Source of the DNA: Paludibacter sp. | Lineage (GTDB): Bacteria > Bacteroidota > Bacteroidia > Bacteroidales > Paludibacteraceae | Direction: 5' to 3' | Assembly (NCBI GenBank): GCA_037142715.1 | Contig: JBAXAD010000003.1 | Span: forward strand, 738-64,737 | Length of the DNA: 64,000 nucleotides | Shown here: positions 4,401 to 52,333 of the stretch, one piece after another | How positions within the stretch are numbered: the first letter of the stretch is position 1 | Layout of the letters: each line of letters begins with the position of its first letter | Notes under the pieces: generated by a model | What the model saw: only the letters and a program-made list of their open reading frames with translations | What the model was told of the DNA's origin: nothing | Databases searched by the model: none | Program-made: the position numbers and the translations under genes

Positions 4401-5378
4401 ATGAAAACTTTCAAAGAAATATCTCAAATAATTACAACCGAACTCGAACAAATCAATTGGAACAAGGAACCTCGTGGATTGTACGAACCCATTGGTTATG
4501 TGCTTAGTATGGGTGGTAAGCGCATTCGCCCGGTTCTGACTTTGATGGCTTGTAATTTGTTTTCGGACGATGTGCAGCCAGCCGTTAATTCTGCTTTGGG
4601 ATTGGAAATTTTCCACAATTTTACTTTGCTGCACGACGATATTATGGACAAAGCCGATGTTCGCCGTGGTCAACCTACTGTTCATAAAAAGTGGGATGAT
4701 AACACTGCCATACTTTCTGGAGATGTGATGCAAATATCGGCATATCAATTTATGACGCAAACACCTGTTAATCAATTAAAGCGGTCATTGGATTTGTTTT
4801 CTCAAACAGCTGCCGAAATTTGCGAAGGCCAGCAATATGATGTTGAATTTGAGTATCGCGATAGAGTTGAGGCCGATGAGTATTTGGAGATGATTCGCTT
4901 GAAAACTGCTGTTTTGCTTGGTGCTTCGCTACAAATTGGAGCATGGATAGGTGGGGCAGGAGAGGAGGATGCACAATTGCTTTACGATTTTGGAATAAAT
5001 ATCGGTTTGGCCTTTCAATTGAAAGACGATTTGCTAGATGTGTATGGTGATGAAGCTACTTTTGGGAAGAAAATTGGAGGCGATATACTTTGTAACAAGA
5101 AAACCTACATGTTGATTCACGCTTTGGAAAGAGCAGATGGAAAAGCGGCTGAAGAACTGCATGATTGGTTGGAAGTTTCTGACGCAAAACAATCAGATAA
5201 AAAAATTCTTGCAGTTACATCACTTTACAATAAATTAGGTGTGAAACAAATTTGCGAAGACAAGATGCAGTTTTTTTATTCAAAGGCAGTCGCAAATTTG
5301 GAAAATGTGTCTGTTTTGGAAAATAAAAAGCAAGAATTGAGAAATATAGCTGATAAATTGATGTTTAGGAACGATTAA
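4401..5378 (+). CDS. Polyprenyl diphosphate synthase (FPP/GGPP synthase family)
   Basis: GGKRIRP motif, two aspartate-rich motifs (HDDIMD, KDDLLD) and KT motif. Confidence 0.93.
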   Translation: MKTFKEISQIITTELEQINWNKEPRGLYEPIGYVLSMGGKRIRPVLTLMACNLFSDDVQPAVNSALGLEIFHNFTLLHDDIMDKADVRRGQPTVHKKWDDNTAILSGDVMQISAYQFMTQTPVNQLKRSLDLFSQTAAEICEGQQYDVEFEYRDRVEADEYLEMIRLKTAVLLGASLQIGAWIGGAGEEDAQLLYDFGINIGLAFQLKDDLLDVYGDEATFGKKIGGDILCNKKTYMLIHALERADGKAAEELHDWLEVSDAKQSDKKILAVTSLYNKLGVKQICEDKMQFFYSKAVANLENVSVLENKKQELRNIADKLMFRND

Positions 5379-5383
5379 TTATT

Positions 5384-5391
5384 TATCTTTG
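5384..5391 (+). promoter_or_regulatory. Sigma-A -7 element upstream of hypothetical gene
   Basis: TATCTTTG located 39 nt before the ATG at 5430. Confidence 0.45.
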
Positions 5392-5429
5392 TGGGCATAA
5401 ATCAATTTCAAATTACTAATTGACTTGCC

Positions 5430-6146
5430 ATGCCCTACCGAAGACTACCCAATACTGATCAAGCGCGTTTGCGTGCATTACGTACTGCTATTCAGCAATT
5501 TGACAAACAAGAATTTGGAAATCTGGTTATTTCTTATAAAACCATTTTAGATGCCAAAACCTATCTCAACGTGTTTGAGAAACAATTAAATCAATACCAA
5601 ATTACTTTAGATAGTCAAGTGTCTGCTAATAAGAAGTATCAGCAAATAGTACATAATGCCCGTTTATACATTTCTCATTTCATTCAGGTGTTAAATCTTT
5701 CGGTTATACGGGGCGATATAAAAAAAGACCACAAACTTTTTTATCATTTAGATCCTAACCTACATACAGTTCCCGATTTAAGTACTGAGGCTTCATTAAT
5801 TCAATGGGGAAAAAGTATAATTGAAGGCGAAAATGAGAGAATTAGGAATGGAGGATTACCGATCTACAATCCCGCAATTGCCAAAGTACAGGTTCATTAT
5901 GAGGTATTTAAAGAATACAAATCCACTCAAAAAATTTACCAAAACACTACCAATCGTAATTGGGAAGACTTGGTAAGTTTGCGTGAAAAAGGGGATGTCA
6001 TTATTCTGAATATTTGGAATCAAGTAGAGGCGAAATTTAGATCTGAACCACCCTATATTCGCATGATAAAATGCCAAACTTTTGGTTTGGTTTATTATTA
6101 CCGAAAGGGCGAGCCTGAGTTGGTGAAGGATGATGTAGTAGTTTAG
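5430..6146 (+). CDS. Conserved Bacteroidota hypothetical protein
   Basis: 238-aa ORF with a helical, protein-like sequence. The MPYRRLPNTD N-terminus is recognised as typical of a Bacteroidota family; no functional motif identified. Confidence 0.75.
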   Translation: MPYRRLPNTDQARLRALRTAIQQFDKQEFGNLVISYKTILDAKTYLNVFEKQLNQYQITLDSQVSANKKYQQIVHNARLYISHFIQVLNLSVIRGDIKKDHKLFYHLDPNLHTVPDLSTEASLIQWGKSIIEGENERIRNGGLPIYNPAIAKVQVHYEVFKEYKSTQKIYQNTTNRNWEDLVSLREKGDVIILNIWNQVEAKFRSEPPYIRMIKCQTFGLVYYYRKGEPELVKDDVVV

Positions 6147-7853: not shown

Positions 7854-9920
7854 ATGCGATTTTTCACTTGTTTGTTATGGTTTCTGGTTTTGTTTCCTTG
7901 TTTTGCAAGGGCACAGGATGCTGTTACTACCACCGAGCAGTTTATCGCCGATGTTTTTGAACAATATACTGCTGAAAGTGAGGTTGAAATAGATTACGAC
8001 ACGTTTTTTGAAGAGTTAATGTTTTGCGCACAAAATCCAATAAATTTGAACCATACTAATCGAGAAGAACTACAGCGATTACTATTTTTGTCGGACATTC
8101 AAATTGAGAACATACAGGCTCACATTTATAAATTTGGTAAGTTGCAAACTCTCTTTGAGCTGCAACTGATTGACGGTCTGGACATGACGGATATTCGACG
8201 TATGTTACCATTTGTTGTAGTGGGTGAATCTGATGATACTTACAAGAAAATATATTGGCATGATTTATTGAAGTATGGAAAAAATGAATTGTTCTTACGA
8301 TTGGATAAAGGTGTGGAAACCAAAGAAGGCTATCAGTTTCTGCCAGAGGAAGATGTGAATGCCGCTGCAACCAATTCCAATAATTATTTGGGCAATGCGC
8401 TTTACCATTCCATGAAATATCGTTTTCATTTCAAAGACAGAATACTTGCTGGTATCACTGCCGAAAAAGATGCTGGCGAACAGTTTTTGGGGAAGAAAAA
8501 TGTTGGTTATGATTATTATTCTGCCTACGCTCAATTGAATAATATTGGAAAAATTAAAACCTTGGTCGTGGGTGATTTTCGTGCCAATTTTGGACAAGGA
8601 TTGGTGTTGCGGCCAGAATTTGGTATGGGCAAATCGTCCTATGTGCTCAATGTTTCGCCACGCAATTCGGGATTAAAGAAATATGGTTCCACCGATGAGA
8701 ATAATTTTTTCAGAGGTGCAGGTGCCACGGTTCGACTTGGAAAGTTTGATGTTACTGCCTTCTATTCCAATAAGATGATAGACGGCGACACGGTGAATGG
8801 CACATTTTCCAGCATTTACACAACGGGTTTGCATCGCACTGAGTCTGAATTGAGTAAAAAGCATACCATCAATCAGCAAGTGATGGGTGGAAATGCCACG
8901 CTGACCAATTCCACTTATCAAATTGGGTTTACTGCTGTTCATACCATCTTGGATAATAAGCTGATACCTGATAAATCGGTGTATAATTATTTCTACTTTT
9001 CGGGCAGTCAGCAAACCACAGCCGGTTTCAACTATCGCCTTCGTTGGCAAAAAATCAATTTCTTTGGCGAAACGGCAATGACTGATAATGGTGCAATGGC
9101 AACTCTCAATGGTTTTACTTTCAGCCCATTATCGCAGGTTAGTTTGGTGGCGTTGCACCGTTATTATTCTCCAGAATTTGATACATTTTACGCCACGGCT
9201 TTTTCCGAGACTTTACGTATCAACAATGAAAGTGGTTTCTATCTCGGAGCTGAAATTCGTCCCTACAAGAAATGGAAAATAGCCACCTACATTGACAGTT
9301 ATCGTTTTCCGTGGCCTAAGTATGGCATTGATGCACCGTCTATTGGCAGTGATTATTTGCTACAGGTTGATTATGCAGCACAGCGAAGAATTAGCATGTT
9401 TTGGCGGTTGAAATATGAGGAAAAAAAATCCAATCTTACCCAAACTGATGCTGTTATGCCATTGGTTGTTCCCATTCAAAAAGCTTCATTGCGCTATAAT
9501 CTAGCTTATTCTTTCGGGAGTTTTAGTTTCAAGAATGTGCTTGAGGGCAATTTAGCACGACAGGCAAATTTCAATTGGACTTATGGCATAATAGCTTCGC
9601 AGGATGTAAGTTATGCGTTTTCGAATATTCCATTGAAAGTAGATGTTCGGTTTCAATTTTTTGATGCCGTAAATTACGAAAATCGCCTTTATTCTTACGA
9701 AAAGGATGTGCTTTATGCATTCTCCATTCCAATGTATTTTGGTTTGGGAAGTCGGTATTATTTGAATATGGAGTTTGATTTGAACAGCCGACTTTCGTTG
9801 TGGTTCAAAATTGCACAAACCGTTTATGCCGATGAGCGTGAATCATTGAGCAGCGGCAATGAAACCATTCCGGGGAATCGGAAAACAGATATGCGGTTGA
9901 TGATTAAGTGGGATTTTTGA
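7854..9920 (+). CDS. ComEA-like helix-hairpin-helix domain protein with large C-terminal beta-barrel
   Basis: Signal peptide, INLNHTNREELQRL...LFELQLIDGL HhH-type region, beta-rich remainder ending in aromatic ...IKWDF. Confidence 0.72.
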   Translation: MRFFTCLLWFLVLFPCFARAQDAVTTTEQFIADVFEQYTAESEVEIDYDTFFEELMFCAQNPINLNHTNREELQRLLFLSDIQIENIQAHIYKFGKLQTLFELQLIDGLDMTDIRRMLPFVVVGESDDTYKKIYWHDLLKYGKNELFLRLDKGVETKEGYQFLPEEDVNAAATNSNNYLGNALYHSMKYRFHFKDRILAGITAEKDAGEQFLGKKNVGYDYYSAYAQLNNIGKIKTLVVGDFRANFGQGLVLRPEFGMGKSSYVLNVSPRNSGLKKYGSTDENNFFRGAGATVRLGKFDVTAFYSNKMIDGDTVNGTFSSIYTTGLHRTESELSKKHTINQQVMGGNATLTNSTYQIGFTAVHTILDNKLIPDKSVYNYFYFSGSQQTTAGFNYRLRWQKINFFGETAMTDNGAMATLNGFTFSPLSQVSLVALHRYYSPEFDTFYATAFSETLRINNESGFYLGAEIRPYKKWKIATYIDSYRFPWPKYGIDAPSIGSDYLLQVDYAAQRRISMFWRLKYEEKKSNLTQTDAVMPLVVPIQKASLRYNLAYSFGSFSFKNVLEGNLARQANFNWTYGIIASQDVSYAFSNIPLKVDVRFQFFDAVNYENRLYSYEKDVLYAFSIPMYFGLGSRYYLNMEFDLNSRLSLWFKIAQTVYADERESLSSGNETIPGNRKTDMRLMIKWDF

Positions 9921-10619: not shown

Positions 10620-12278
10620 TCAATTATTATTATCTCTTTCGCGAATTTCGGCTCTGCGAATTTTACCGCTGATAGTTTTGGGCAATTCGTCCACAAATTG
10701 AATAATTCGTGGGTATTTATAAGGTGCTGTAACTGTTTTCACATGGTCTTGAATCTCTTTTATCAACAGTTCACCTGCTTTTTCTTTGTATTCATTGGCC
10801 AAAATAATAGTGGCTTTCACTATTTGTCCACGGATTTCGTCGGGTATGCCAGTTATAGCACATTCCACCACTGCAGGATGCGTCATTAACGCACTTTCCA
10901 CTTCAAAAGGACCAATTCGATAGCCTGAACTCTTAATCACATCGTCTGTACGACCTACAAACCAGTAATATCCATCTTCATCACGCCACGCCACATCGCC
11001 TGTGTAATACACATTGTCATGCCACGCCTCATTGGTGAGGCTTTCATTGCGGTAGTAGCCCTTAAAAAGGCCTACAGGATAGTGTTTGTCGGTACGAATA
11101 ACAATCTGTCCCTGTTCACCCACTTCGGCAGAACGACCTTCGGGCGTTAGTAAATCCATATCGTAATGAGGATTTACTAATCCCATCGAACCTGGCTTTG
11201 GCTCTGCCCATGGCGAAGTGAAAAGCGTAAGTGTTGTTTCGCTTTGTCCGTATCCTTCGCGAAGTTTAATGCCGGTAAGTTTGAGAAACTGCTCATAAAC
11301 GGCAGGATTGAGTGCTTCCCCAGCTATTGTGCAATATTCCAATGATGACAAATCATATCTCGATATATCCTCACGAATCAAAAAACGGAAAATTGTAGGC
11401 GGTGCACAAAGAGAGGTAATTTTATATTTTTCAATCATGGCAAGCATGTCTAATGACGAAAATTTCTCATGGTCGTACACAAATACGCAGGCACCAACTA
11501 TCCATTGTCCATAAAGTTTTCCCCAAACGGCCTTCAACCAACCCGTGTCAGCTATTGTTAGATGCAAACTATCTTCATGCAGATTGTGCCAAAATTTAGC
11601 TGTAACAATGTGAGCCAATGGATAAATGCAATCCAACATTACCATTTTTGGATTTCCGGTTGTGCCCGAAGTGAAACTTATTATAAGCGGGTCGGCATTA
11701 TTAGTAACTTTTTCAATGGGAGAAAAAGGTGCGGCGTTTTCAATTCCTTCGTGAAAATCATGCCAACCTTCCGGAACTATTTTTCCAACGGAAATCAGCA
11801 TTTCAACGCTTGGTGACTCAGGCATGGAATCGTTGATGTGGTTGATAATACTTTCTTCACCAACAGCTATAATTGCTTTAATATCAGCGGCATTATTGCG
11901 ATAAACCAAGTCTTTTTTTGTCAGTAAATGGGTGGCGGGAATGATGACAGCACCAATTTTATGCAATGCAATAATAGTGAACCAAAATTCATAACGACGT
12001 TTGAGAATGGCCATTACGATGTCTCCTTTTTTTATTCCCAGGCTTTGAAAATAGGATGCTGTTTGGTCGGAATATTGCTTCATTTCGGCAAAAGTAAATG
12101 TGCGACTTTCACCCAAGTCGTTTGTCCATAGCAAAGCCCTTTTGTTGGGTGCCTTTGCTGCCCATTGGTCAACAATATCGTAGCCAAAATTAAAATTGTC
12201 GGGAACTATAAGCTTGTAATTTGCCTTGAAATCTTCAAAGTTGCTAAATTCTGTTTGTTCTAGGTATTTATCGAGCAT
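10620..12278 (-). CDS. AMP-binding acyl-CoA synthetase (acetate/short-chain acyl-CoA ligase)
   Basis: FTSGTTGNPK, EGYGQSET, YYTGD, GRTDDVIKSSGYRIGPFEVE and PKTISGKIRR adenylation motifs. Confidence 0.92.
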   Translation of the reverse strand: MLDKYLEQTEFSNFEDFKANYKLIVPDNFNFGYDIVDQWAAKAPNKRALLWTNDLGESRTFTFAEMKQYSDQTASYFQSLGIKKGDIVMAILKRRYEFWFTIIALHKIGAVIIPATHLLTKKDLVYRNNAADIKAIIAVGEESIINHINDSMPESPSVEMLISVGKIVPEGWHDFHEGIENAAPFSPIEKVTNNADPLIISFTSGTTGNPKMVMLDCIYPLAHIVTAKFWHNLHEDSLHLTIADTGWLKAVWGKLYGQWIVGACVFVYDHEKFSSLDMLAMIEKYKITSLCAPPTIFRFLIREDISRYDLSSLEYCTIAGEALNPAVYEQFLKLTGIKLREGYGQSETTLTLFTSPWAEPKPGSMGLVNPHYDMDLLTPEGRSAEVGEQGQIVIRTDKHYPVGLFKGYYRNESLTNEAWHDNVYYTGDVAWRDEDGYYWFVGRTDDVIKSSGYRIGPFEVESALMTHPAVVECAITGIPDEIRGQIVKATIILANEYKEKAGELLIKEIQDHVKTVTAPYKYPRIIQFVDELPKTISGKIRRAEIRERDNNN

Positions 12279-24510: not shown

Positions 24511-24540
24511 GCGTCAAACCGCAAAAAATCGGTTGGACGC
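24511..24540. repeat. Isolated REP-A hairpin copy
   Basis: GCGTCAAACCGCAAAAAATCGGTTGGACGC, nearly identical to the hairpins flanking the RAYT gene 6 kb away. Confidence 0.85.
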
Positions 24541-27476: not shown

Positions 27477-30146
27477 ATGAAAAACAAGATTTTACCCTCC
27501 CAATTACCCGAAAAACAAAATGATGAATCTCAAACGCCTGTAATAGAAAATGACATTTTACCACCAAAATCCGAAGTGAAAATATCAAAGAACCTTGTGC
27601 CTGATTTTCTGATTGTGGCAATTGGTGCATCGGCTGGCGGATTGGAAGCATTGGAATCTTTTTTCGAAAATATGCCTCTCAACAATAACATGGCATTCGT
27701 TGTGATTCAGCATCTTGACCCTACCCACAATGGTATTATGCCCGAACTGATGCAACGGTTTACGGCCATGAAGGTTATGCAAGCTACCGATCAACTCAAA
27801 GTGAAACCGAACTGCGTTTATATAATTCCACCCAACAAAAGTATGTCGATTCTGAAAGATACTTTGTATCTTTTTGAGCCTATTGAAACACGTGGACTGC
27901 GCCTTCCAATTGATTATTTTTTCCGTTCGTTGGCACAAGACAGGCTGGATAAGAGTGTTGGCATTATTCTTTCGGGTATGGGCTCCGATGGTACCCTTGG
28001 CATTAAAGCCATAAAAGAAAAAAATGGTGTGGTTCTGGTTCAGGATCCAAGTACGGCAAAATTTGACAGTATGCCACGTTCGGCCATCGAATCGGTTATA
28101 GTGGACATAGTAGCTCCAGCCAATCAGCTGCCATTAAAGTTGATAGAATTTATGAAGTTTATTCCAACAATCAATTTAGATGCAGAAGTGGAGGTGAAAA
28201 ATAAAAGTAATATCGATAAAATTATAATTCTGCTGCGTGAACAGTCGGGACATGATTTTTCGATGTATAAAAAAAACACCCTGTTTCGTCGCATCGAGAG
28301 GCGCAAAGGAGTTCATCAAATTGACCGACTTGAAAATTATGTCCGCTTTTTGCAAGAAAATCCCAAGGAGGTAGAAATTCTTTTCAAAGAACTGCTGATA
28401 GGCGTTACAAGTTTTTTTAGGGACACTGCCGTGTGGGAAAAATTAGAAGCAACCATCTTTCCTGATTTATTGAACGAAATGCCTGATGGTGCTGTGATGC
28501 GTGCTTGGGTGGCTGGTTGTTCTACCGGCGAAGAGGCATATTCACTAGCAATTTTATTCAAAGAATCGGTGGAAAAGCTTAAAAACCGCAGGAATATATC
28601 ATTACAGATTTTTGCTTCCGATTTGGACAGCGATGCCATTGAAATAGCCAGAAAAGGCATTTTCACTAAAAATATAGTTTCCGATGTTTCGCCCGAACGT
28701 CTTAATCGTTTTTTTATTGAAGAAGCTGGCTGCTTCAGGGTTACGAATGCCATACGTGAAATGGTGGTTTTTGCCCCACAAAATGTGATTAAAGATCCGC
28801 CATTTACAAAACTCGACATTTTGACTTGTCGCAATATGTTGATTTACATTGAACCAGAATTACAGAAGAAAATTATTACTTTATTTCATTACAGCCTCAA
28901 TCCAGGTGGAATAATGGTGCTTGGCACTGCCGAAACGCTTGGAAATATGAACATTGGATTTGAGGAAATTGATGGAAGATTGAAATTATTTAAACGAAGC
29001 GTAAATTCAATTTCTCCGGAACTGATTGATTTTCCAAGCTCTTTTCATAGACCAAAAATGGTTTCAAAAGAAAATAATAATACTTCAAAATCCATTGATA
29101 ATATTCAATCCATTGCCGATCAGATACTTCTTCAGAGGTTTACTCCTTCCAGTGTTTTGGTAAATTCCAAAGGCGACATTTTATACATTACTGGTCGCAC
29201 GGGAAATTATTTGGAATTGGTGGCTGGCAAAGCCAACTGGAATATTCACGTTATGGCCAGGGAAGGACTGCGACAGGAACTTCCGGTTGCGTTCCGCAAG
29301 GCCATGCAAAATTATGATCAAGTATTATTGTCAAATCTGAAAATTGGAATTAATGGTGGCAGTGTGTTAGTTAATGTGACAATTCAACGCATTGAAACTC
29401 CAGATTCTATAAAAGGCATGATTATGTTGGTGTTTAATGAAATTCCTTTTGTGCCCGAAATAGTGGATGCTGCAAAAAAACTGAGTAAACACAATTCTAG
29501 TAGGAATAAGGAACTTGAAATTGAACTTCAGCGAAGTTATGAGGATTTGCAAAGTACACGCGAGGAAATGCAAACATCGCAAGAAGAGTTAAAATCTACC
29601 AATGAAGAATTGCAATCTACCAATGAAGAATTGCAATCGACCAACGAAGAGCTGACCACTTCCAAAGAAGAAATGCAGAGCTTGAATGAAGAATTACAAA
29701 CGGTAAATTCAGAACTGCAAACCCGTGTTACCGATTTTATGCAGGCAAGTAACGACATGAAAAACTTGCTCAACAGTACTGAAATTGCCACTTTATTTTT
29801 GGATAAGGACTTAAATATAAGGCGTTTTACCGATTCGGCTACCACCATTTTTAAATTGAGAAATGCCGATGTGGGACGACCATATACCGACCTTGTTTCC
29901 GATTTGCAATACCCCGAAATGGATAAACACGCCCGTCAGGTAATAAGAACATTAACTACTATTGAAACGCCAATAAAAACCAATGATGGGAGATGGTACA
30001 ATGTTCGCATAATGCCATATCGTACACTGGATGACCGCATTGACGGGCTTATAATTACTTTTATGGATATTACATTTGCCAAAAAAATGGAAAATGAATT
30101 GAAGGAAGCCAAAGAGGAACTTTTGAAAAACGACAAAAAGATTTAA
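27477..30146 (+). CDS. CheB methylesterase-CheR methyltransferase-PAS-coiled-coil-PAS fusion
   Basis: CheB triad motifs GASAGG, IQHL, SGMGSDG; CheR motifs GVTSFFRD, WVAGCSTGEEAYSLA, FASDLD, CRNMLIY; (STNEELQ)n heptads; PAS_10-like C-terminus; no kinase domain. Confidence 0.95.
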   Translation: MKNKILPSQLPEKQNDESQTPVIENDILPPKSEVKISKNLVPDFLIVAIGASAGGLEALESFFENMPLNNNMAFVVIQHLDPTHNGIMPELMQRFTAMKVMQATDQLKVKPNCVYIIPPNKSMSILKDTLYLFEPIETRGLRLPIDYFFRSLAQDRLDKSVGIILSGMGSDGTLGIKAIKEKNGVVLVQDPSTAKFDSMPRSAIESVIVDIVAPANQLPLKLIEFMKFIPTINLDAEVEVKNKSNIDKIIILLREQSGHDFSMYKKNTLFRRIERRKGVHQIDRLENYVRFLQENPKEVEILFKELLIGVTSFFRDTAVWEKLEATIFPDLLNEMPDGAVMRAWVAGCSTGEEAYSLAILFKESVEKLKNRRNISLQIFASDLDSDAIEIARKGIFTKNIVSDVSPERLNRFFIEEAGCFRVTNAIREMVVFAPQNVIKDPPFTKLDILTCRNMLIYIEPELQKKIITLFHYSLNPGGIMVLGTAETLGNMNIGFEEIDGRLKLFKRSVNSISPELIDFPSSFHRPKMVSKENNNTSKSIDNIQSIADQILLQRFTPSSVLVNSKGDILYITGRTGNYLELVAGKANWNIHVMAREGLRQELPVAFRKAMQNYDQVLLSNLKIGINGGSVLVNVTIQRIETPDSIKGMIMLVFNEIPFVPEIVDAAKKLSKHNSSRNKELEIELQRSYEDLQSTREEMQTSQEELKSTNEELQSTNEELQSTNEELTTSKEEMQSLNEELQTVNSELQTRVTDFMQASNDMKNLLNSTEIATLFLDKDLNIRRFTDSATTIFKLRNADVGRPYTDLVSDLQYPEMDKHARQVIRTLTTIETPIKTNDGRWYNVRIMPYRTLDDRIDGLIITFMDITFAKKMENELKEAKEELLKNDKKI

Positions 30147-30151
30147 CATAT

Positions 30152-30422
30152 CCGCTTATCCGCTTTTTTGCGGTTTGTTGGATGATTGGAAGATAAGAGG
30201 AAAACCAAGAGTGCGTTAAAGACAACCTAACGCGTCCAACCGAAAAAAAATCGGTTGGACGCTACTAAACCGCTCAACCGCTTTCTCAGCGGTTTGTCGG
30301 ATGAATGGAAGATAAGGTAGAACCCGAAAGCATTAAAGACAACCTAACGCGTCAAACCGAAAAAAATCGGTTGGACGCTACTGAAACCTAACACTTCCAA
30401 CCGAAAAAAATCGGTTGGTAGC
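30152..30422. repeat. Left REP/BIME-like array: B-A-B-A-A hairpins
   Basis: REP-B at 30152 and 30270; REP-A (GCGTC(C/A)AACCG-A7/8-TCGGTTGGACGC) at 30232, 30349 and degenerate at 30393. A ~118-bp unit is duplicated. Confidence 0.92.
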
Positions 30423-30440
30423 TATAAAAAATAAGATATT

Positions 30441-31025
30441 ATGTATTTTACAAAAGACTGTACATACCATGTTTACAACCGGAGTAATGGACTTTTATTT
30501 CATAATAGGGAGAATTACATTTTCTTTCTGAAAAAGATTAGAATTCATATTCTACCTTTTGCGGATATTTTGTCTTATTGTTTAATGCCCAATCATTTTC
30601 ATTTAATACTGACTGCAAAAGCAGAAGGTGTTGTTTTTTTAGAAAATGAAAGATTGAAAGATTTACAACAATTATCACGGGGAATAGGAACGGTTTTGAG
30701 TTCATATACTCAAGCTGTAAACAAGCAGCAAGGCAATAAAGGATGTCTTTTTGCACACAAAACAAAAGCAAAGATTCTGAATGATGCAAAAGATGATTAT
30801 GCGTTAAATTGTTATATGTATGTACATCAAAATCCTTATCTAGCAAAATTGGTTGATAAAATTGAGGACTGGGAATTTTCCTCTTTCCTAGATTATATTG
30901 GGAGAAGAAACGGAACTTTAGTTAATAAACAAATGGGGATTGATATTTTTCAAGTACCCAAAAATCAGGTTTATGAACTTACCTATATAATGATGCAGGA
31001 CAAGTTCGATGAAGATTTTAATTGA
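30441..31025 (+). CDS. REP-associated tyrosine transposase (RAYT, HUH/Y1 family)
   Basis: YHVYNR, YCLMPNHFHLIL (HUH), YVHQNP (candidate catalytic Tyr) and WEFSSF motifs. Confidence 0.9.
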   Translation: MYFTKDCTYHVYNRSNGLLFHNRENYIFFLKKIRIHILPFADILSYCLMPNHFHLILTAKAEGVVFLENERLKDLQQLSRGIGTVLSSYTQAVNKQQGNKGCLFAHKTKAKILNDAKDDYALNCYMYVHQNPYLAKLVDKIEDWEFSSFLDYIGRRNGTLVNKQMGIDIFQVPKNQVYELTYIMMQDKFDEDFN

Positions 31026-31033
31026 TGCTGGAA

Positions 31034-31190
31034 ATCCGCATAACCGCTTTTTTTTGCGGTTTGTCGGATGAATTGTTAGAAGGATGCTGGAGGCTACTGA
31101 AACCTAACGCGTCAAACCGAAAAAAATCGGTTGGACGCTACTGAAACTAACGCGTCAAACCGAAAAAATCGGTTGTACGCTACTGAAAAC
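31034..31190. repeat. Right REP array: B-A-A hairpins
   Basis: ATCCGCATAACCGC-T-run-GCGGTTTGTCGGAT at 31034, then REP-A at 31109 and 31152, each followed by TACTGAAA. Confidence 0.92.
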
Positions 31191-31213: not shown

Positions 31214-34200
31214 ATGGAAACTAATAACATCAAAATTCTGGCTATCGATGATAATCTTGAAAATTTAATGATTATTAAATCATTGATTTTAAAGGAATTT
31301 CCAAAGGCATTGTTTTTAACTGCTCCTAATGGAAAAAAAGGATTGGAAATAGCTACAGCTCAATACCCTGATGTTATTTTGATGGACATTCTTATGCCCG
31401 ATATGGACGGTTTTGAAGTGTGTGAGTTTCTTAATGCAGACCCTATACTAGTTGATATTCCGGTGGCAATTGTTACAAATGTAAAAGGGACTAACGAAAT
31501 ACGGATACGTGCCATGGAAGTGGGAGCTACAGCTTATTTGGAGAAACCTGTTGACATGAAGGAGCTTGCGATGCAGATACGTGCCATGTTGAAAATTAAA
31601 ATTGCAAATGTTGCTAGACGTACTGAAAATGAGCGACTTGAAGTTTTGGTGGAAGAACGAACCCGCGAATTACTGGAAACCCACAAAGCAACGCTACATT
31701 TATTGGAAGAGTTGAAAAACGAGAATGAAGCTCGCCGAAATAGCGAAGAAGCATTGCGGTTAAATGAGGAGAAGTATCGATTCATGACCGAAAATTCCAG
31801 CGATGTCATCTGGCATTTAGACAGCAATTATTGTTGTGATTATATCAGTCCAGCCGATGAGCGAATGCGTGGTTTTAGTAAAGAAGAAATGTTAGGCAAA
31901 TCGATATTGTCGATACTTAAACCAGAAGGTTATGAACAGGTTAAGCAAGTAACTGCACAGCGGTTGAAAGACGAAAAAAACGGGATTTTTAGCAATACCT
32001 ATCAATATGAATTTGAACAAATCTGCAAAGATGGTAGTTGGATCTGGATTGAAACAAATTCTACAGCTCACTTCAATGAAGCTGGAGAACATGTTGGATT
32101 TCATGGAGTTACGCGTAATATTTCTGAGAGAAAAGCAGCGCAGGCGGCTATACGTGAAAGCGAGGAGAAATACCGAATTATAACCGAACAATCGCCCATT
32201 GCCATTGAGTTGTATAATTCAGATGGCAAACTTGCAAATGCAAACAAAGCGTGCTTGGAGTTGTTTGGAATAATTAACCCTGAAAATATTAAAGGATTTT
32301 CATTGTTTGATGATCCAAATATTTCTGAGTTTCACAAAAATGAATTGAAGCAAGGTAGATCAATTAACTATCAAGATGAATTCGATTTTGATAAAGTAAA
32401 AGAATTGAACCTTTATAAAACAAGCAAATCAGGAAAAATTTACCTCGACACAATTATTACCCCAATAACAAAAGAAGGAAAAAATGAAACTGAATACTTA
32501 GTTCAAATACAAGACATTACAGAAAGAATACAAGTTGAATCTCAACTAAAAAAATTAAGTAATCACTATCAGAAAATTATTGAAAATGCACCCGACGGAA
32601 TTGTGTTAATTAATACCAACGGTGAATTCAAATACATTAGCACATCGGCCAAGCGAATGTTAGGGTATGATATTACGGAAGAAATTAACTCAACTCCCTA
32701 TGACTTAACACACCCTGACGATTTACCAAACGTGCTATTTACAATTGATAAACTATTACATGACTTCACTTTATGTCCGTTATTGCAATATCGTTTTTTG
32801 AATAAAGTGGGTGTTTGGATCTGGATTGAAAGTAAATTCACTGTTCAAATTGATGATTCAAATGAGGTTTTTATAATAATTAATTTTCGAGATATAACCG
32901 AACAAAGAAAAGCCGATGAGGAGCTTTCTCAAACCCGACTAAATTACGAAACATTTTTCAATACGATTGATGATTTTCTATTTGTACTTGATGTGCAGGG
33001 AAATATAATTCACACCAATAATACGGTAAATAACAGGTTATTGTATTCGAAAGAAGAGCTTTTAGGAAAATCGGTATTGGAAGTTAATCCCGCAGACCGA
33101 CGCGAAGAAGCTGGCAAAATAGTAGGTGAAATGCTCAGTGGACTTGCCGAAACTTGCCCTGTGCCAATTGTCACAAAATCGGGAGTACAAATACCCGTAG
33201 AAACTAGGGTTACGCATGGATTTTGGAACGGAGAGCCAGTGATTTTTGGCGTTACCAAAGATGTTTCGAAAGTGAAATTGTCCGAAGAAAAATTCTCCAA
33301 AGTGTTTCATGTCAATCCTTCGGCATGTACATTATCCGAAATGGATAATTATAAATATGTAGAAGTAAATGAGGCATTTTACAAGCTGTTTGGTTTTGAT
33401 AAGGACGAAGTTATTGGAAAATCGGCTATAGAGTTGGGAATTATTAGTCCTGAATCTTATCATAAAAATATAAACTCAGGAGATGCATTTGGTAATGTAT
33501 ATAATATAGAAAGCATTGGGAAAACTAAAACCGGAGATGAAAAACAGGTTTTAATTTCTTCCGAAAACATAAATGTACAAGATAAAAGCTACCGTTTCAC
33601 TTTAATTCAGGACATTACCGATCGGAAATTAGCAGAAGAATCACTCAGGGAAAGGGAAGGGAAATATCGGTTTATGTTTGCAAATAATCCACAACCGATG
33701 TTTATTTATGATTTGGAAACTCTCGCATTTTTGGAAGTAAACCAATCAGCCATAAACCATTATGGATATTCGAGAGAGGAATTTCTTGCCATGTCAATAA
33801 AAGACATTCGCCCAGAAGAAGATTTACCCGCATTTTTGGAAGACGTTGAAAAAGCAAAGCTAACCTTCATAAGTACTTCCAATGATTGGAAACACATAAA
33901 GAAAAACGGAGAGTTGATTTACGTACAAGTTACTGCACTTTCAATTATCTCGAATGGTAGAAATGCGCGTCACATAATGGTGAATGACATTACCGACCGC
34001 AAAAATGCCGAAAAAGAGTTGCGCGAAAGTGAGTCTAAATACTTCAACCTATATTCACTTATTCGATCAATGAGCGATACCATGCCCGACATGCTATGGG
34101 CCAAGGATTTGAATAATAACTATATATTTACAAACAAGGCATTTAGCAAAATAATACTTAATGCTACTGATACTTCTGAAGCAATTGGTAAAAACGATAT

Positions 34201-37200
34201 TTTCTTTGCCTTGCGAGAACGTGAAACCCACATTGAAAATCCTGAATGGCATACTTTTGGCGATATTTGCGCCAATACAGATGTCCTTACATTGCAAGAA
34301 ATGAAACCCATGCGGTTTGATGAATATGGAAATGTAAAAGGCAAATTTATATATTTGGATGTTGATAAAGCGCCATTGTATAATAGCAATAACGAACTAA
34401 TTGGAGTTGTGGGTTCTGGACGTGATGTAACACAAAAGAAGGAAGTAGAAAAAAATCTCAGGCATCTAGCACGCCTTTATGCATTGCTAAGTGAAATAAA
34501 TAGAGCCATTGTTAAGCATAAAAATCAGGACGAACTTTTTGATACTATATGTAAAGTAGCCATAGAATTCGGTCAATTTCGGATGGCATGGTTTGGCAAA
34601 TACGATGAAGATATATGTAAGATTATTCCCATAATATCAGCAGGTTACAGCGATGGTTATTTGGATTTACTACGTCTTGACCCCAACTCCAAAACCAATG
34701 GGAAAGGACCTACCGGCAGGGCATTTCATGAAGGGGAAATTGTATTTTGTAACGATATTGCCAATGACCCAATGATGCAACCATGGAAAGATCAGGCACT
34801 TAAACGTGGTTATCAATCATCGTTTGCAGCACCTATTTTGCGAGGCGGAAAACCTTACGGAACTTTTACGCTTTATGCCTCTGAAGTGGGGTTCTTTAAT
34901 AATGATGAACAAAAACTGTTGGCAGAAATTGGACAAAACATTTCTTATGCCATCGATGCCATCGATTCTGAATTGGAGCGCATACAAATTCAGCAAGATT
35001 TGGAAATTAGTGAGCTAAAATACAGAGAGTTGATGGAAAACTCGCCCGAAGGAATCACTATATATGTTGACGGAAAAGTGGCATACATCAACAAGGAAGC
35101 CATGCGATTGATGAGGGCAAAAGATAAGAACAACTTATTGGGCAAAACAATTGTAGATTTTATTCATCCCGACAATCAAGCCTTGGTATTGGAGCGCATG
35201 CAATATGTGGCAATGGCACCTTTGTATGCCATTTTGCCATCGGTGGAAGAAAAATATATCAGACTTGATGGTACAGAAGTGTATGTGGAAATTAAAGTGA
35301 TGCCCATTCTTTATGATGGAAAACCAGCCATACAATTGTCAGGTCATGACATTTCGGATCGGAAAAATGCTGAAATGGCCCTTGCAGATACCATGACGGA
35401 ATTAAAAACCATATACGATAACTCGCCTGTAATGATGTGCGTGGTGGACGAAAAGGCTGACATACAATTTGCTAATCAGGCTTTTGCCCATTTATCTGAA
35501 ACTATTAAGAGCGAATTGAAGGGCGAACAAGTGGGCGATGTGATGGGATGTGTTCAGGCTTTAGAGAACAATGCTGGATGTGGTTTTGGAAAACTATGTG
35601 GCAATTGTGGATTAAGAGGCGCTATGTTGAATACACTTAAAACTGGCAAAGGACATAACAATATTGAGCATAAATCTACTTTGGTGCGCGATGGAATACA
35701 TGTAGATGTTTTCCTTCTAGCTTCTACTGCGTTAATACTTACAGGTAAAACCAAGCGTCTTCTTTTGTGTTTGGTAGACATAACAAATCGTAAACAAGCC
35801 GAAGAAGCCCTTCAAAAAAGTGAAGAGAAGTACCGATTGCTTGCAGAAAATATGCATGATGGAATTTTATCATTTGGGGCTGATAACAAAATTAATTATG
35901 TGTCAGCATCTTATATTAAACAACTTGGTTATTCAGAGAAGACGCAGCTTGATAAGGGCGTAACTGATATATTTTCAATCATTCATCCTGAAGATCGTGA
36001 TGAAGTGTTTGCAAATATATTTGATGCGATAGAAAAAAAGAAACCTCAATTGGTTTATTCTTATAGAGTTAAACATTTTTTAGGACATTATATTTGGCGT
36101 GAAGATAGTACAAAATTCAATTACGATGACGATGGAAATTATGCTGGCGCTTATTTAGTCTGTCGTGATATTACTATTCGAAAACAAACACAAGAAGCAT
36201 TACAACTAAGTGAAATTCATTTGAATAACTTGTTTGAGTTTTCGCCAATTTCTATTTGGGAAGAAGATTTTTCTGAGATTAAAAATTATTTTGACGAATT
36301 GAAAGGTCAAGGAATAGCTGATTTTAGAGAGTTTTTGACTAGTAATCCCCACGAGGTAGAAAAGCTAGCAATGCTTATAAAAGTTGCGAAAGTGAATGAA
36401 ACGAGCGTTAAAATTTTTGGTGCTGATACCAAAGAAGAGCTAATTTCTAGCTTGCCCTTTGCCTTTAGCCACATCAATGTGCCTGTGTTTCTGGAAGAGT
36501 TTGTAGCATTGGCCGAAGGAAAAATCCATTTTGAGGGCGAAACGCAAATTGATACTTTGAAGGGAGAAAAGAGGAACTTTTGGTTGAACCTCACCGTGAT
36601 GCCCGACTATGAAGACACGTTGTCTAAAGTGCTGGTTACGTTTATTGACATTACTGAGCGGAAGCAGGCGGAAGATGCACTTCAGAAAAGTGAAATGTTT
36701 TTAAGGACATTTATCGACAATACTCCTTTTGAAATTTGGGCCAGAGATGTCAATAATATTGGAATACTGGAAAACAAAAAAGTGGTGGACCATTATGGAT
36801 CTATATTAGGCAAACAGCCGAATGAACTTTCAATACAAGATAGGAAACTGGGGAAAACTTGGGAAAGTCAAAACGTTCGGGTTTTTAAAGGTGAAATGAT
36901 AGATGAAGTTGTTGAGTTTAAGGAAAACAAAGAATTGTTATTCTATCAAAAAATCAGTTTTCCTATTATCAACAAGTCAGAAATCATAGGTATTGCGGGC
37001 TTTAATATTGACATCACCGAACGGAAGCGTGCCGATGAAGCATTAAGAATATCGCAAGTTCAATTGAAGCAATTTGCAGCTCATCTTCAGGATGTGCGTG
37101 AAGAAGAAAAGAAAATACTGGCCCGTGAAATTCACGATGAATTAGGTCAAATTCTGGTAGCTCTTAAAATTGATTTAGGATTATTGAAACAAAAAGTAGT

Positions 37201-37726
37201 AAGAAAATTTGAGGATACAGATCCAGGTGATTTAATTACAAAATTTGACCACCTGTATGTTTTAGTGGACGATACCATTAAAACTACCCGGAAAATAATG
37301 ACCAACTTGCGGCCGGAAGTGCTTGATCTGCTCGGATTTATGGATGCCGTGAAATTATACAGCCGTGACTTTAAGGAAAGACATCGGATGGAATGTAATT
37401 TTACTTGCAACATTACGAAACTTGAAATTCAACCTCAGCACTCTATGGCATTGTTCAGAATTGTGCAGGAGTCGCTCACCAACGTAGCAAAACATGCCAA
37501 AGCAAGTACGGTGAGTATCACTTTGGAATTTCTGAATGATAAACTCGTCTTGAAAATAATAGACAACGGTGTGGGCTTTGATGAAAATCACAAAGGACGA
37601 TCCGATTCGTATGGAATGATTGGTATGAAGGAGCGCGTTTTTCTGTTGGATGGCGAATTGAGTATTGTAGGAAAACTGGGAATTGGCACCACTGTAAAGG
37701 TTTCGATGCCTTATAAAGAAGCGTGA
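31214..37726 (+). CDS. HK1: REC-(about 12 PAS)-GAF-HisKA_3-HATPase cytoplasmic histidine kinase, 2170 aa
   Basis: REC (IDDN, MDILMPDMDG, EKP), repeated PAS/PAC units ending DIT.RK, a GAF segment, H-box AREIHDELGQ, and DNGVGF/GMIGMKER. Confidence 0.93.
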   Translation: METNNIKILAIDDNLENLMIIKSLILKEFPKALFLTAPNGKKGLEIATAQYPDVILMDILMPDMDGFEVCEFLNADPILVDIPVAIVTNVKGTNEIRIRAMEVGATAYLEKPVDMKELAMQIRAMLKIKIANVARRTENERLEVLVEERTRELLETHKATLHLLEELKNENEARRNSEEALRLNEEKYRFMTENSSDVIWHLDSNYCCDYISPADERMRGFSKEEMLGKSILSILKPEGYEQVKQVTAQRLKDEKNGIFSNTYQYEFEQICKDGSWIWIETNSTAHFNEAGEHVGFHGVTRNISERKAAQAAIRESEEKYRIITEQSPIAIELYNSDGKLANANKACLELFGIINPENIKGFSLFDDPNISEFHKNELKQGRSINYQDEFDFDKVKELNLYKTSKSGKIYLDTIITPITKEGKNETEYLVQIQDITERIQVESQLKKLSNHYQKIIENAPDGIVLINTNGEFKYISTSAKRMLGYDITEEINSTPYDLTHPDDLPNVLFTIDKLLHDFTLCPLLQYRFLNKVGVWIWIESKFTVQIDDSNEVFIIINFRDITEQRKADEELSQTRLNYETFFNTIDDFLFVLDVQGNIIHTNNTVNNRLLYSKEELLGKSVLEVNPADRREEAGKIVGEMLSGLAETCPVPIVTKSGVQIPVETRVTHGFWNGEPVIFGVTKDVSKVKLSEEKFSKVFHVNPSACTLSEMDNYKYVEVNEAFYKLFGFDKDEVIGKSAIELGIISPESYHKNINSGDAFGNVYNIESIGKTKTGDEKQVLISSENINVQDKSYRFTLIQDITDRKLAEESLREREGKYRFMFANNPQPMFIYDLETLAFLEVNQSAINHYGYSREEFLAMSIKDIRPEEDLPAFLEDVEKAKLTFISTSNDWKHIKKNGELIYVQVTALSIISNGRNARHIMVNDITDRKNAEKELRESESKYFNLYSLIRSMSDTMPDMLWAKDLNNNYIFTNKAFSKIILNATDTSEAIGKNDIFFALRERETHIENPEWHTFGDICANTDVLTLQEMKPMRFDEYGNVKGKFIYLDVDKAPLYNSNNELIGVVGSGRDVTQKKEVEKNLRHLARLYALLSEINRAIVKHKNQDELFDTICKVAIEFGQFRMAWFGKYDEDICKIIPIISAGYSDGYLDLLRLDPNSKTNGKGPTGRAFHEGEIVFCNDIANDPMMQPWKDQALKRGYQSSFAAPILRGGKPYGTFTLYASEVGFFNNDEQKLLAEIGQNISYAIDAIDSELERIQIQQDLEISELKYRELMENSPEGITIYVDGKVAYINKEAMRLMRAKDKNNLLGKTIVDFIHPDNQALVLERMQYVAMAPLYAILPSVEEKYIRLDGTEVYVEIKVMPILYDGKPAIQLSGHDISDRKNAEMALADTMTELKTIYDNSPVMMCVVDEKADIQFANQAFAHLSETIKSELKGEQVGDVMGCVQALENNAGCGFGKLCGNCGLRGAMLNTLKTGKGHNNIEHKSTLVRDGIHVDVFLLASTALILTGKTKRLLLCLVDITNRKQAEEALQKSEEKYRLLAENMHDGILSFGADNKINYVSASYIKQLGYSEKTQLDKGVTDIFSIIHPEDRDEVFANIFDAIEKKKPQLVYSYRVKHFLGHYIWREDSTKFNYDDDGNYAGAYLVCRDITIRKQTQEALQLSEIHLNNLFEFSPISIWEEDFSEIKNYFDELKGQGIADFREFLTSNPHEVEKLAMLIKVAKVNETSVKIFGADTKEELISSLPFAFSHINVPVFLEEFVALAEGKIHFEGETQIDTLKGEKRNFWLNLTVMPDYEDTLSKVLVTFIDITERKQAEDALQKSEMFLRTFIDNTPFEIWARDVNNIGILENKKVVDHYGSILGKQPNELSIQDRKLGKTWESQNVRVFKGEMIDEVVEFKENKELLFYQKISFPIINKSEIIGIAGFNIDITERKRADEALRISQVQLKQFAAHLQDVREEEKKILAREIHDELGQILVALKIDLGLLKQKVVRKFEDTDPGDLITKFDHLYVLVDDTIKTTRKIMTNLRPEVLDLLGFMDAVKLYSRDFKERHRMECNFTCNITKLEIQPQHSMALFRIVQESLTNVAKHAKASTVSITLEFLNDKLVLKIIDNGVGFDENHKGRSDSYGMIGMKERVFLLDGELSIVGKLGIGTTVKVSMPYKEA

Positions 37727-47912: not shown

Positions 47913-48003
47913 ACTTTACAAGTTTCGCGTCCAATCGTTTTTTTTTACGGTTTGAAGCATAAGTAAGCAGAAATAAAAGCGGTTTGACACAATAAAACGA
48001 ATT

Positions 48004-52287: not shown

Positions 52288-52301
52288 GTCTGCGCTCCGC
52301 T

Positions 52302-52333
52302 CCGCTCAACCGCTTTAAGCGGTTTGTCGGATA
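52302..52333. repeat. Isolated REP-B hairpin copy
   Basis: CCGCTCAACCGCTTTAAGCGGTTTGTCGGATA, nearly identical to the REP-B at 30270. Confidence 0.85.

Follow-up and report, generated by a model that had tools for sequence, protein, structure and literature searches.

A probable REPtron of a Bacteroidota-wide RAYT clade, set within arrays of two related imperfect hairpins in a Paludibacter genome

The window analyzed here, a 64,000-nucleotide stretch of Paludibacter sp. DNA, is part of contig C3 in a metagenome-assembled genome of 4.26 Mb (MAG; 432 contigs, 92.9% complete). Between a cheBR fusion gene and a kinase gene it holds a single open reading frame, a RAYT-type ORF of 194 residues (P0001) at positions 30441-31025 of the plus strand, which is bordered on both sides by hairpins of two classes, REP-A and REP-B. 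All eight hairpins, five of the first class and three of the second, lie on the plus strand, and the first-pass annotation, which had placed a Y1/HUH transposase gene amid this same set from the letters alone, is borne out on this point, with hairpin cores well beyond shuffle expectation (see below). The features of the locus are as follows:

27477-30146, CheB-CheR-PAS fusion gene, upstream neighbor of the RAYT gene (domain annotation)
30150-30183, plus strand, REP-B1, degenerate, upper stem only CCGC/GCGG, weak single-stranded DNA (ssDNA) fold (z -1.9)
30232-30265, plus strand, REP-A1, perfect 12-bp stem GCGTCCAACCGA/TCGGTTGGACGC, A-rich loop and 3' CTAC (-15.2 kcal/mol, z -9.9)
30268-30302, plus strand, REP-B2, lower stem, 3x3 internal loop, AACCGC/GCGGTT upper stem and T-rich loop (-9.2 kcal/mol, z -3.5)
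30349-30381, plus strand, REP-A2, central A.G mismatch and CTAC tail (z -6.2)
30393-30425, plus strand, REP-A3, degenerate lower stem (ACTTCC...GGTAGC) and TAT tail (-8.7 kcal/mol, z -5.5)
30441-31025, plus strand, predicted RAYT or TnpA(REP)-like HUH/Y1 gene, 194 aa (HUH and Y motifs, fold, family profile, dN/dS)
31034-31069, plus strand, REP-B3 (-11.0 kcal/mol, z -4.5)
31088-31100, plus strand, remnant of an A hairpin, 3' arm and tail (TGGAGGCTACTGA; repeat-family comparison)
31109-31141, plus strand, REP-A4 (core pattern and ssDNA fold)
31152-31183, plus strand, REP-A5, 3' arm variant GTACGC (z -4.4)
31214-37726, REC-PAS-GAF-HisKA_3-HATPase kinase gene, 2170 aa, downstream neighbor of the RAYT gene (domain annotation)

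Read 5' to 3', the array upstream of the gene runs REP-B1, A1, B2, A2 and A3, and the one downstream REP-B3, the remnant A arm, A4 and A5. The tandem duplication of a B-spacer-A unit of about 118 bp that had been proposed earlier is found as two 118-bp upstream copies (30150-30267 and 30268-30385; 83% identical), to which a third, shorter unit is added downstream of the gene (31035-31145), and the two classes alternate across the locus with a period of 117-119 bp. We also observe that the last 18 nucleotides of the RAYT ORF together with the 7 beyond them (31008-31032) resemble the segment that follows REP-B3 (31067-31091; 72% over 25 nucleotides), a likeness that may reflect how the gene entered the array.

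In REP-A a single mismatch at the center separates a 5-bp lower stem from a 6-bp upper stem, and as ssDNA the four copies whose lower stem is intact have fold energies of -9.2 to -15.2 kcal/mol (z -4.4 to -9.9). The minus strand of REP-A reads GTAG-CGTCC... in four of the five locus copies and ATAG in the remaining one, and the tetranucleotide is absent from REP-B. Genome-wide it accompanies about 8 of some 36 A-family copies, mainly those at the RAYT locus, and it also recurs in several copies in relatives; the GTAG earlier placed at the foot of the REP-A stem is a feature of most locus copies, and a role as hallmark of the family is not supported. On either strand the 120-nt B-A units fold as two separate hairpins and not as a single long one of the REPIN type. 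None of the eight locus hairpins fits an intrinsic terminator, and a search of Rfam with E values up to 1 gives no match for them.

The core AACCGA-N4-9-TCGGTT occurs five times in the window and not once in 100 shuffles, and the core AACCGC-N4-10-GCGGTT three times against a shuffle mean of 0.01. A chance cluster of palindromes is rejected on these counts and on recurrence in independent assemblies. More broadly, an origin of the pattern in chance or in faulty assembly could draw on the fragmentation of the MAG into its 432 contigs, some of which end in hairpin arrays; set against the near absence of shuffle matches, the repetition of the same layout in independent metagenome assemblies and the presence of hairpins at 67 of the 80 best related loci, such an origin is vanishingly unlikely.

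The encoded protein carries HFH at residues 52-54 and YVHQNP at 127-132, and H52, H54, Y127, N131 and P132 are invariant across 36 homologs of 52-89% identity, whereas the WQ motif common to most RAYT subclasses here reads F-A. The NCBIfam profile REP_Tyr_transpos (NF047646) matches P0001 with an E value of 7e-10 and 38.9 bits, under its curated cut-off of 80 bits, and all 36 homologs match it likewise under the cut-off (best E value 1e-14); the strictness of the threshold may, we assume, reflect the ‘equivalog’ kind of the profile. A Pfam search with P0001 returns no match, Y1_Tnp included, and 7 of the 36 homologs do match Y1_Tnp. The AlphaFold2 model (pLDDT 90, pTM 0.87) finds as its top Foldseek match in the PDB structure 4ER8, E. 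coli TnpA(REP) in complex with a REP hairpin (E value 5e-6, TM 0.57/0.65, 160 aligned columns, 19% sequence identity over the structural alignment), followed more weakly by the IS200, IS608 and ISDra2 transposases. Searched against PDB sequences, the family profile likewise retrieves only 4ER8, in an alignment that spans both the HUH and the Y motifs; a single-sequence phmmer search of P0001 against the PDB yields noise only. Substitution rates against two syntenic orthologs (dN/dS of 0.135 and 0.067) indicate that the gene is under purifying selection and maintained. Together, motifs, model and profile identify P0001 as a predicted ssDNA nuclease-ligase of the RAYT-type HUH/Y1 family, of the TnpA(REP) type and with catalysis itself a prediction, and the earlier assignment to the RAYT-type HUH/Y1 transposases is upheld by the invariant motifs and by 4ER8 as the best match of both fold and profile.

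The two hairpin classes are related. Reverse-complemented, the core of a CCGC-topped form of REP-A (A') gives exactly the REP-B core, CAACCGC-T6/7-GCGGTTTG, as is clearest in relatives where A' directly follows B; the loop is T-rich in B and A-rich in A, and the mismatch at the upper stem is C.T in B versus A.G in A. The lower stem of REP-B (ATCCG...CGGAT, with a 3x3 internal loop) is unlike that of A. Aligned to the A' consensus, the B consensus gives 30 identities as reverse complement (score 18) and 23 on the forward strand (score 1); since both strings were typed by hand from the census and the loop supplies much of the gap between the scores, we give more weight to the identity seen in individual copies. 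As far as sequence comparison can tell, REP-B is an inverted A-type hairpin that presents the same upper stem, loop and mismatch on the other strand above a different lower stem and, with core, loop and mismatch polarity all opposite, the B-A unit is read as an inverted heterotypic doublet. The first-pass annotation had all copies in direct orientation, which is accurate within either class and misses that REP-B is itself an inverted derivative of REP-A.

Neither class is restricted to the RAYT locus. The genome-wide count of both hairpins proposed in the first-pass annotation returns about 36 dispersed loci of the A family, GCGTC[A/C]AACCG-loop-CGGTT[G/T]GACGC, most of them CCGC-topped (A'), and 18 of the B family, about 54 copies in the 4.26 Mb; these are lower bounds, because some contigs end inside hairpin arrays. 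The exact CCGA-topped form of A is nearly limited to the RAYT locus and rare elsewhere. Among 41 cleanly classified copies 37 are intergenic, compared with crude ORF calls that cover about 86% of the genome. Three copies lie elsewhere in the window:

24511-24540, plus strand, solo A-family copy, intergenic
47927-47958, minus strand, degenerate A-family copy, solo and of opposite sense, flanked by two kinase genes
52301-52331, plus strand, solo REP-B copy, intergenic

The dispersed copies comprise about 21 solo A hairpins, about 7 solo B hairpins, about 4 B-then-A doublets and 4 A-then-B pairs. An obligate B-A mobile unit is rejected as the main form, solo hairpins being predominant. The exact A pattern finds 17 loci in the MAG versus none or one per genome in 60 congeners, and the exact B pattern 10 versus none; both hairpin families are essentially missing from congeners that do not carry the RAYT lineage of P0001. 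The first-pass annotation had held that hairpins confined to the locus and acting as IS200/IS605 ends would overturn the REPtron reading; their genome-wide dispersal argues for a REPtron and not for an IS200/IS605 element.

Several further observations concern the dispersed copies and their surroundings. Short runs of the heptamer GAAACAC border many solo A' hairpins, on one side or on both (C123:7630, C130:8720, C66:6170, C32:4980-5120, C142:1530-1650); they could belong to the mobile unit or represent a favored target, and the CTGAAAC that follows the hairpins of the RAYT locus resembles a single unit of this type. On 19 of the 24 contigs that bear A or B copies the hairpins share one sense on the contig plus strand, on 4 they have the opposite one and on 1 both occur; the contigs are oriented neither by composition nor by lexicographic order and their orientation looks random, hairpin sense does not follow the direction of neighboring genes, and the 19-to-4 bias is possibly chance. 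At C15:17633-19361 two inverted A' hairpins with matching flanks enclose about 1.7 kb of coding DNA. An A'-B doublet with a 4-nt gap recurs at C5:38605-38668, C9:4943-5006 and C91:6169-6232 within a longer repeat common to the three contigs, and three A-family copies with shared flanks (C160:3511, C222:3284 and C323:2708) lie inside long ORFs of the crude calls, where they may be REP insertions in a repeated gene.

A tblastn search of the genome finds one copy of the P0001 gene and no near-identical duplicates, its next relative being 31% identical, and the paralogs examined, on contigs C40, C74 and C112, carry other hairpins of their own. Metagenome contigs whose RAYT is 89% and 83% identical preserve the gene order cheBR-RAYT-kinase. 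Three contigs from three samples have RAYT genes with 100% nucleotide identity and cheBR with 99.9% identity, yet differ in the number of units in the downstream array. Such a difference in array length next to an identical gene suggests fast array turnover at the locus, which we treat as a lead only, 115-bp tandem units being prone to short-read assembly error. A close ortholog is present in 1 of 24 congeneric species searched (G020; 70% identity), where it occupies a different locus, preceded by one B-like hairpin and followed by two A-like ones, all with GCGGC/GCCGC upper stems; at that frequency and position the gene is not stably inherited across the genus. It therefore appears, on these comparisons, to hold its position among close relatives and to be patchily distributed at greater distances. 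The search for an empty site that had been suggested finds no empty junction: in the closest genomes compared CheBR is about 60% identical with no adjoining kinase, and the near relatives in metagenomes all carry the RAYT gene between cheBR and the kinase gene.

These data also bear on whether the locus is instead an insertion sequence of the IS200/IS605 type, with REP-B as left end and REP-A as right end, in which the whole unit or gene-less mini-units would move as a single-stranded circle. The hairpins upstream and downstream of the gene do share one polarity, a layout reminiscent of the asymmetric ends of such elements, the G020 ortholog has a minimal B-gene-A-A layout at another locus, the lineage is patchy in the genus, and the TnpA proteins of IS200 and IS608 are among the next-best fold matches. 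An insertion sequence of this kind is nonetheless hard to reconcile with a single gene copy that has no near-identical duplicates, a position conserved in close relatives, several hairpins on each side in place of one pair, and dispersed copies that are mostly solo and not B...A pairs; P0001 itself lacks a Pfam Y1_Tnp match, has TnpA(REP) as its best match and shows the dN/dS of a maintained gene. We regard this explanation as very improbable and retain the REPtron reading.

A scan of species-representative genomes returns at least 570 related RAYT loci. The best 80 of them are all from Bacteroidota, in Paludibacter, other Bacteroidales, Prolixibacteraceae, Chitinophagaceae, Cytophagales and Balneolaceae, and in 67 of these 80 the gene has hairpins of the form 5 bp-mismatch-5 bp no more than about 500 nt away. 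Hairpin density is 3.11 per kb beside the gene versus 0.18 per kb in the far flanks, a 17-fold enrichment, and the stems differ between lineages through paired substitutions; the central position in related loci is usually A.A or T.T. Throughout Bacteroidota, hairpin sequence varies in step with the RAYT lineage. No single rule of orientation holds for the whole clade: of 25 loci with typed hairpins both upstream and downstream, 14 have nearest hairpins that agree in sense and 11 have nearest hairpins that oppose each other.

It is against this phylum-wide pattern that a host function for the hairpins has to be weighed, in which they would be structural or regulatory elements such as mRNA stabilizers or protein-binding sites, with arrays that vary by slippage or unequal recombination and a RAYT-like protein that no longer acts on them. 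Tandem units of about 115-118 bp do favor slippage, array length does vary among contigs with 100% identical RAYT genes, and the locus hairpins stand between co-oriented genes and could be transcribed. Elements of the host would not be expected to follow the RAYT lineage through the phylum, to be enriched 17-fold beside its gene or to be missing from congeners that do not carry it, and the invariant catalytic motifs and the purifying selection speak against an inactive protein; the hairpins, moreover, are not terminator-like and belong to no Rfam family. A host function of this sort is improbable.

In light of these results, the best explanation is that the locus represents a REPtron whose RAYT clade extends across Bacteroidota, which we hold to be likely. 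The observation beneath it is plain: a RAYT gene sits in BIME-like arrays of two related imperfect hairpins. If it works as E. coli TnpA(REP) does, the enzyme would bind the folded hairpin on transiently single-stranded DNA, read the mismatch and a flanking tag (on the plus strand TAAC upstream and CTAC downstream, on the minus strand GTAG), and cleave beside the hairpin before rejoining the strands. Such cut-and-rejoin cycles would spread solo hairpins and doublets and alter array length while the gene itself stays put. It is important to note what counts against the REPtron reading: P0001 falls under the NCBIfam cut-off, has no Pfam Y1_Tnp match and replaces WQ by F-A, about 54 copies are few for classical REPs, and GTAG accompanies about 8 of 36 A-family copies, with CCGA-topped A rare outside the locus; the single close ortholog among 24 congeners, at another site, and the possible assembly origin of the array-length differences weigh on the same side.

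The same genome holds other RAYT systems, which we describe here as observations in their own right. A second REPtron lies at C40:11370-12409, with a RAYT gene at 11669-12217 whose product is 31% identical to P0001 and a hairpin CCTAACAGGTT-loop-AACCTGTTAGG found at 21 loci genome-wide. One inverted and then four direct copies precede this gene, and one inverted and then two direct copies follow it, the layout of the P0001 locus (inverted, then direct, on both sides) with unrelated hairpins. A third RAYT type is present in two copies (C74:~8540-9440 and C112:~4960-5720) with the motifs NHVH, LWQ and Y-x-x-NNP, by which it looks like subclass 2.4 of Quentin et al.; its genes are flanked by REPIN-like long doublets, GGGACAAGCGACA...TGTCGCTTGTCCC, of which the genome has about 5 along with 19 small hairpins.

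The locus changes nothing in kind, an association of RAYT genes with hairpins at the level of the phylum having been published before. To our knowledge, RAYT/REP biology has been tested almost solely in Proteobacteria. Here, a clean Bacteroidota case offers one gene, two related hairpin classes and about 50 lineage-specific dispersed copies, with clear strand-defining features in the hairpins (central mismatch, loop polarity and flanking tags) and two or three further RAYT types in the same genome, each with its own hairpins; this combination makes the system convenient for studying how RAYTs choose substrate and strand. A bolder proposal is that the RAYT of this clade uses an uncharacterized two-part substrate, a mismatch hairpin whose two lower-stem versions (B and A) serve in opposite sense, often bracketed by GAAACAC runs, and that it remodels the arrays beside its gene as fast as strains diverge, given the unequal array lengths next to 100% identical RAYT genes. 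This we consider unlikely; if true, it would provide a REP system that is active at present, amenable to study and found outside Proteobacteria, with a layout intermediate between IS200/IS605 ends and BIMEs.

Among described families the nearest is RAYT subclass 2.6 (group 5 of Bertels), mostly of Bacteroidetes, with the motifs NH[LIV]H and YIH[QN]NP and with non-canonical flanking hairpins that have copies elsewhere in the genome (Quentin et al. 2018, PMC6006769). Our locus shares with it the phylum, a length in the range of about 180-195 aa, the Y motif (YVHQNP here, YIHQNP in the family consensus), a lack of conservation in the stretch with which the E. coli protein contacts GTAG, and non-canonical flanking hairpins with copies elsewhere and commonly more than one hairpin subfamily per locus; it differs in its HUH motif (NHFH versus NH[LIV]H), in the missing WQ and in that its REP-A copies at the locus carry GTAG. 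By Y motif and phylum the locus looks most like subclass 2.6, in a comparison by motif description that leaves subclass 2.4 (NH[IFV]H, mean length 194 aa, also frequent in Bacteroidetes; PMC6006769) as a further candidate. Nearly half of all REPtrons have more than one REP subfamily (PMC6006769), and CGTC-tagged REPs are known in Bacteroidetes (Di Nocera et al. 2013, PMC3733652); here the stem likewise starts with CGTC, right after GTAG, but as paired stem sequence and not as an unpaired tag. The description of the locus as a Bacteroidota REPtron, with a RAYT-type gene and cognate REP-like hairpins in a Paludibacter-like genome, is accordingly one that our analysis shares, whereas the novelty for the phylum that the first-pass annotation implied was anticipated by the published subclasses 2.6 and 2.4 and the CGTC REPs.

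With the IS200/IS605 elements IS608 and ISDra2 the locus has in common the HUH/Y1 fold, strand-specific recognition of subterminal hairpins and two ends of like polarity; in contrast to them, it has a single-copy gene, three to five hairpins per side, hairpins dispersed without the gene and a predicted fold nearer to TnpA(REP). The REPIN-RAYT systems of Pseudomonas (Bertels and Rainey) resemble it in their single-copy RAYT, lineage-specific cognate repeats and purifying selection, but here the B-A unit folds as two hairpins and not as one long REPIN, the dispersed copies are mostly singlets and the lineage is patchy within the genus.

The E. coli REPtron, finally, combines a TnpA(REP) that needs a bulged imperfect palindrome preceded by a conserved motif (Corneloup et al. 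2021, PMC8266576) with a rayt gene (yafM) flanked on both sides by BIME-2 arrays of Y and Z2 REPs (PMC2817692). Our locus departs from it in the 19% identity over the structural alignment and the F-A in place of WQ, in its about 54 copies against the more than 100 per genome usual for REPs, in the common upper stem and unrelated lower stems of A and B, and in the GAAACAC runs that bracket many solo copies. Conversely, the two share a single-copy HUH/Y1 gene, mismatch hairpins with a GTAG foot and REPs of the locus that are also dispersed in intergenic DNA and, as in BIME-2, two REP types that alternate in opposite sense and in tandem on both sides of the gene.
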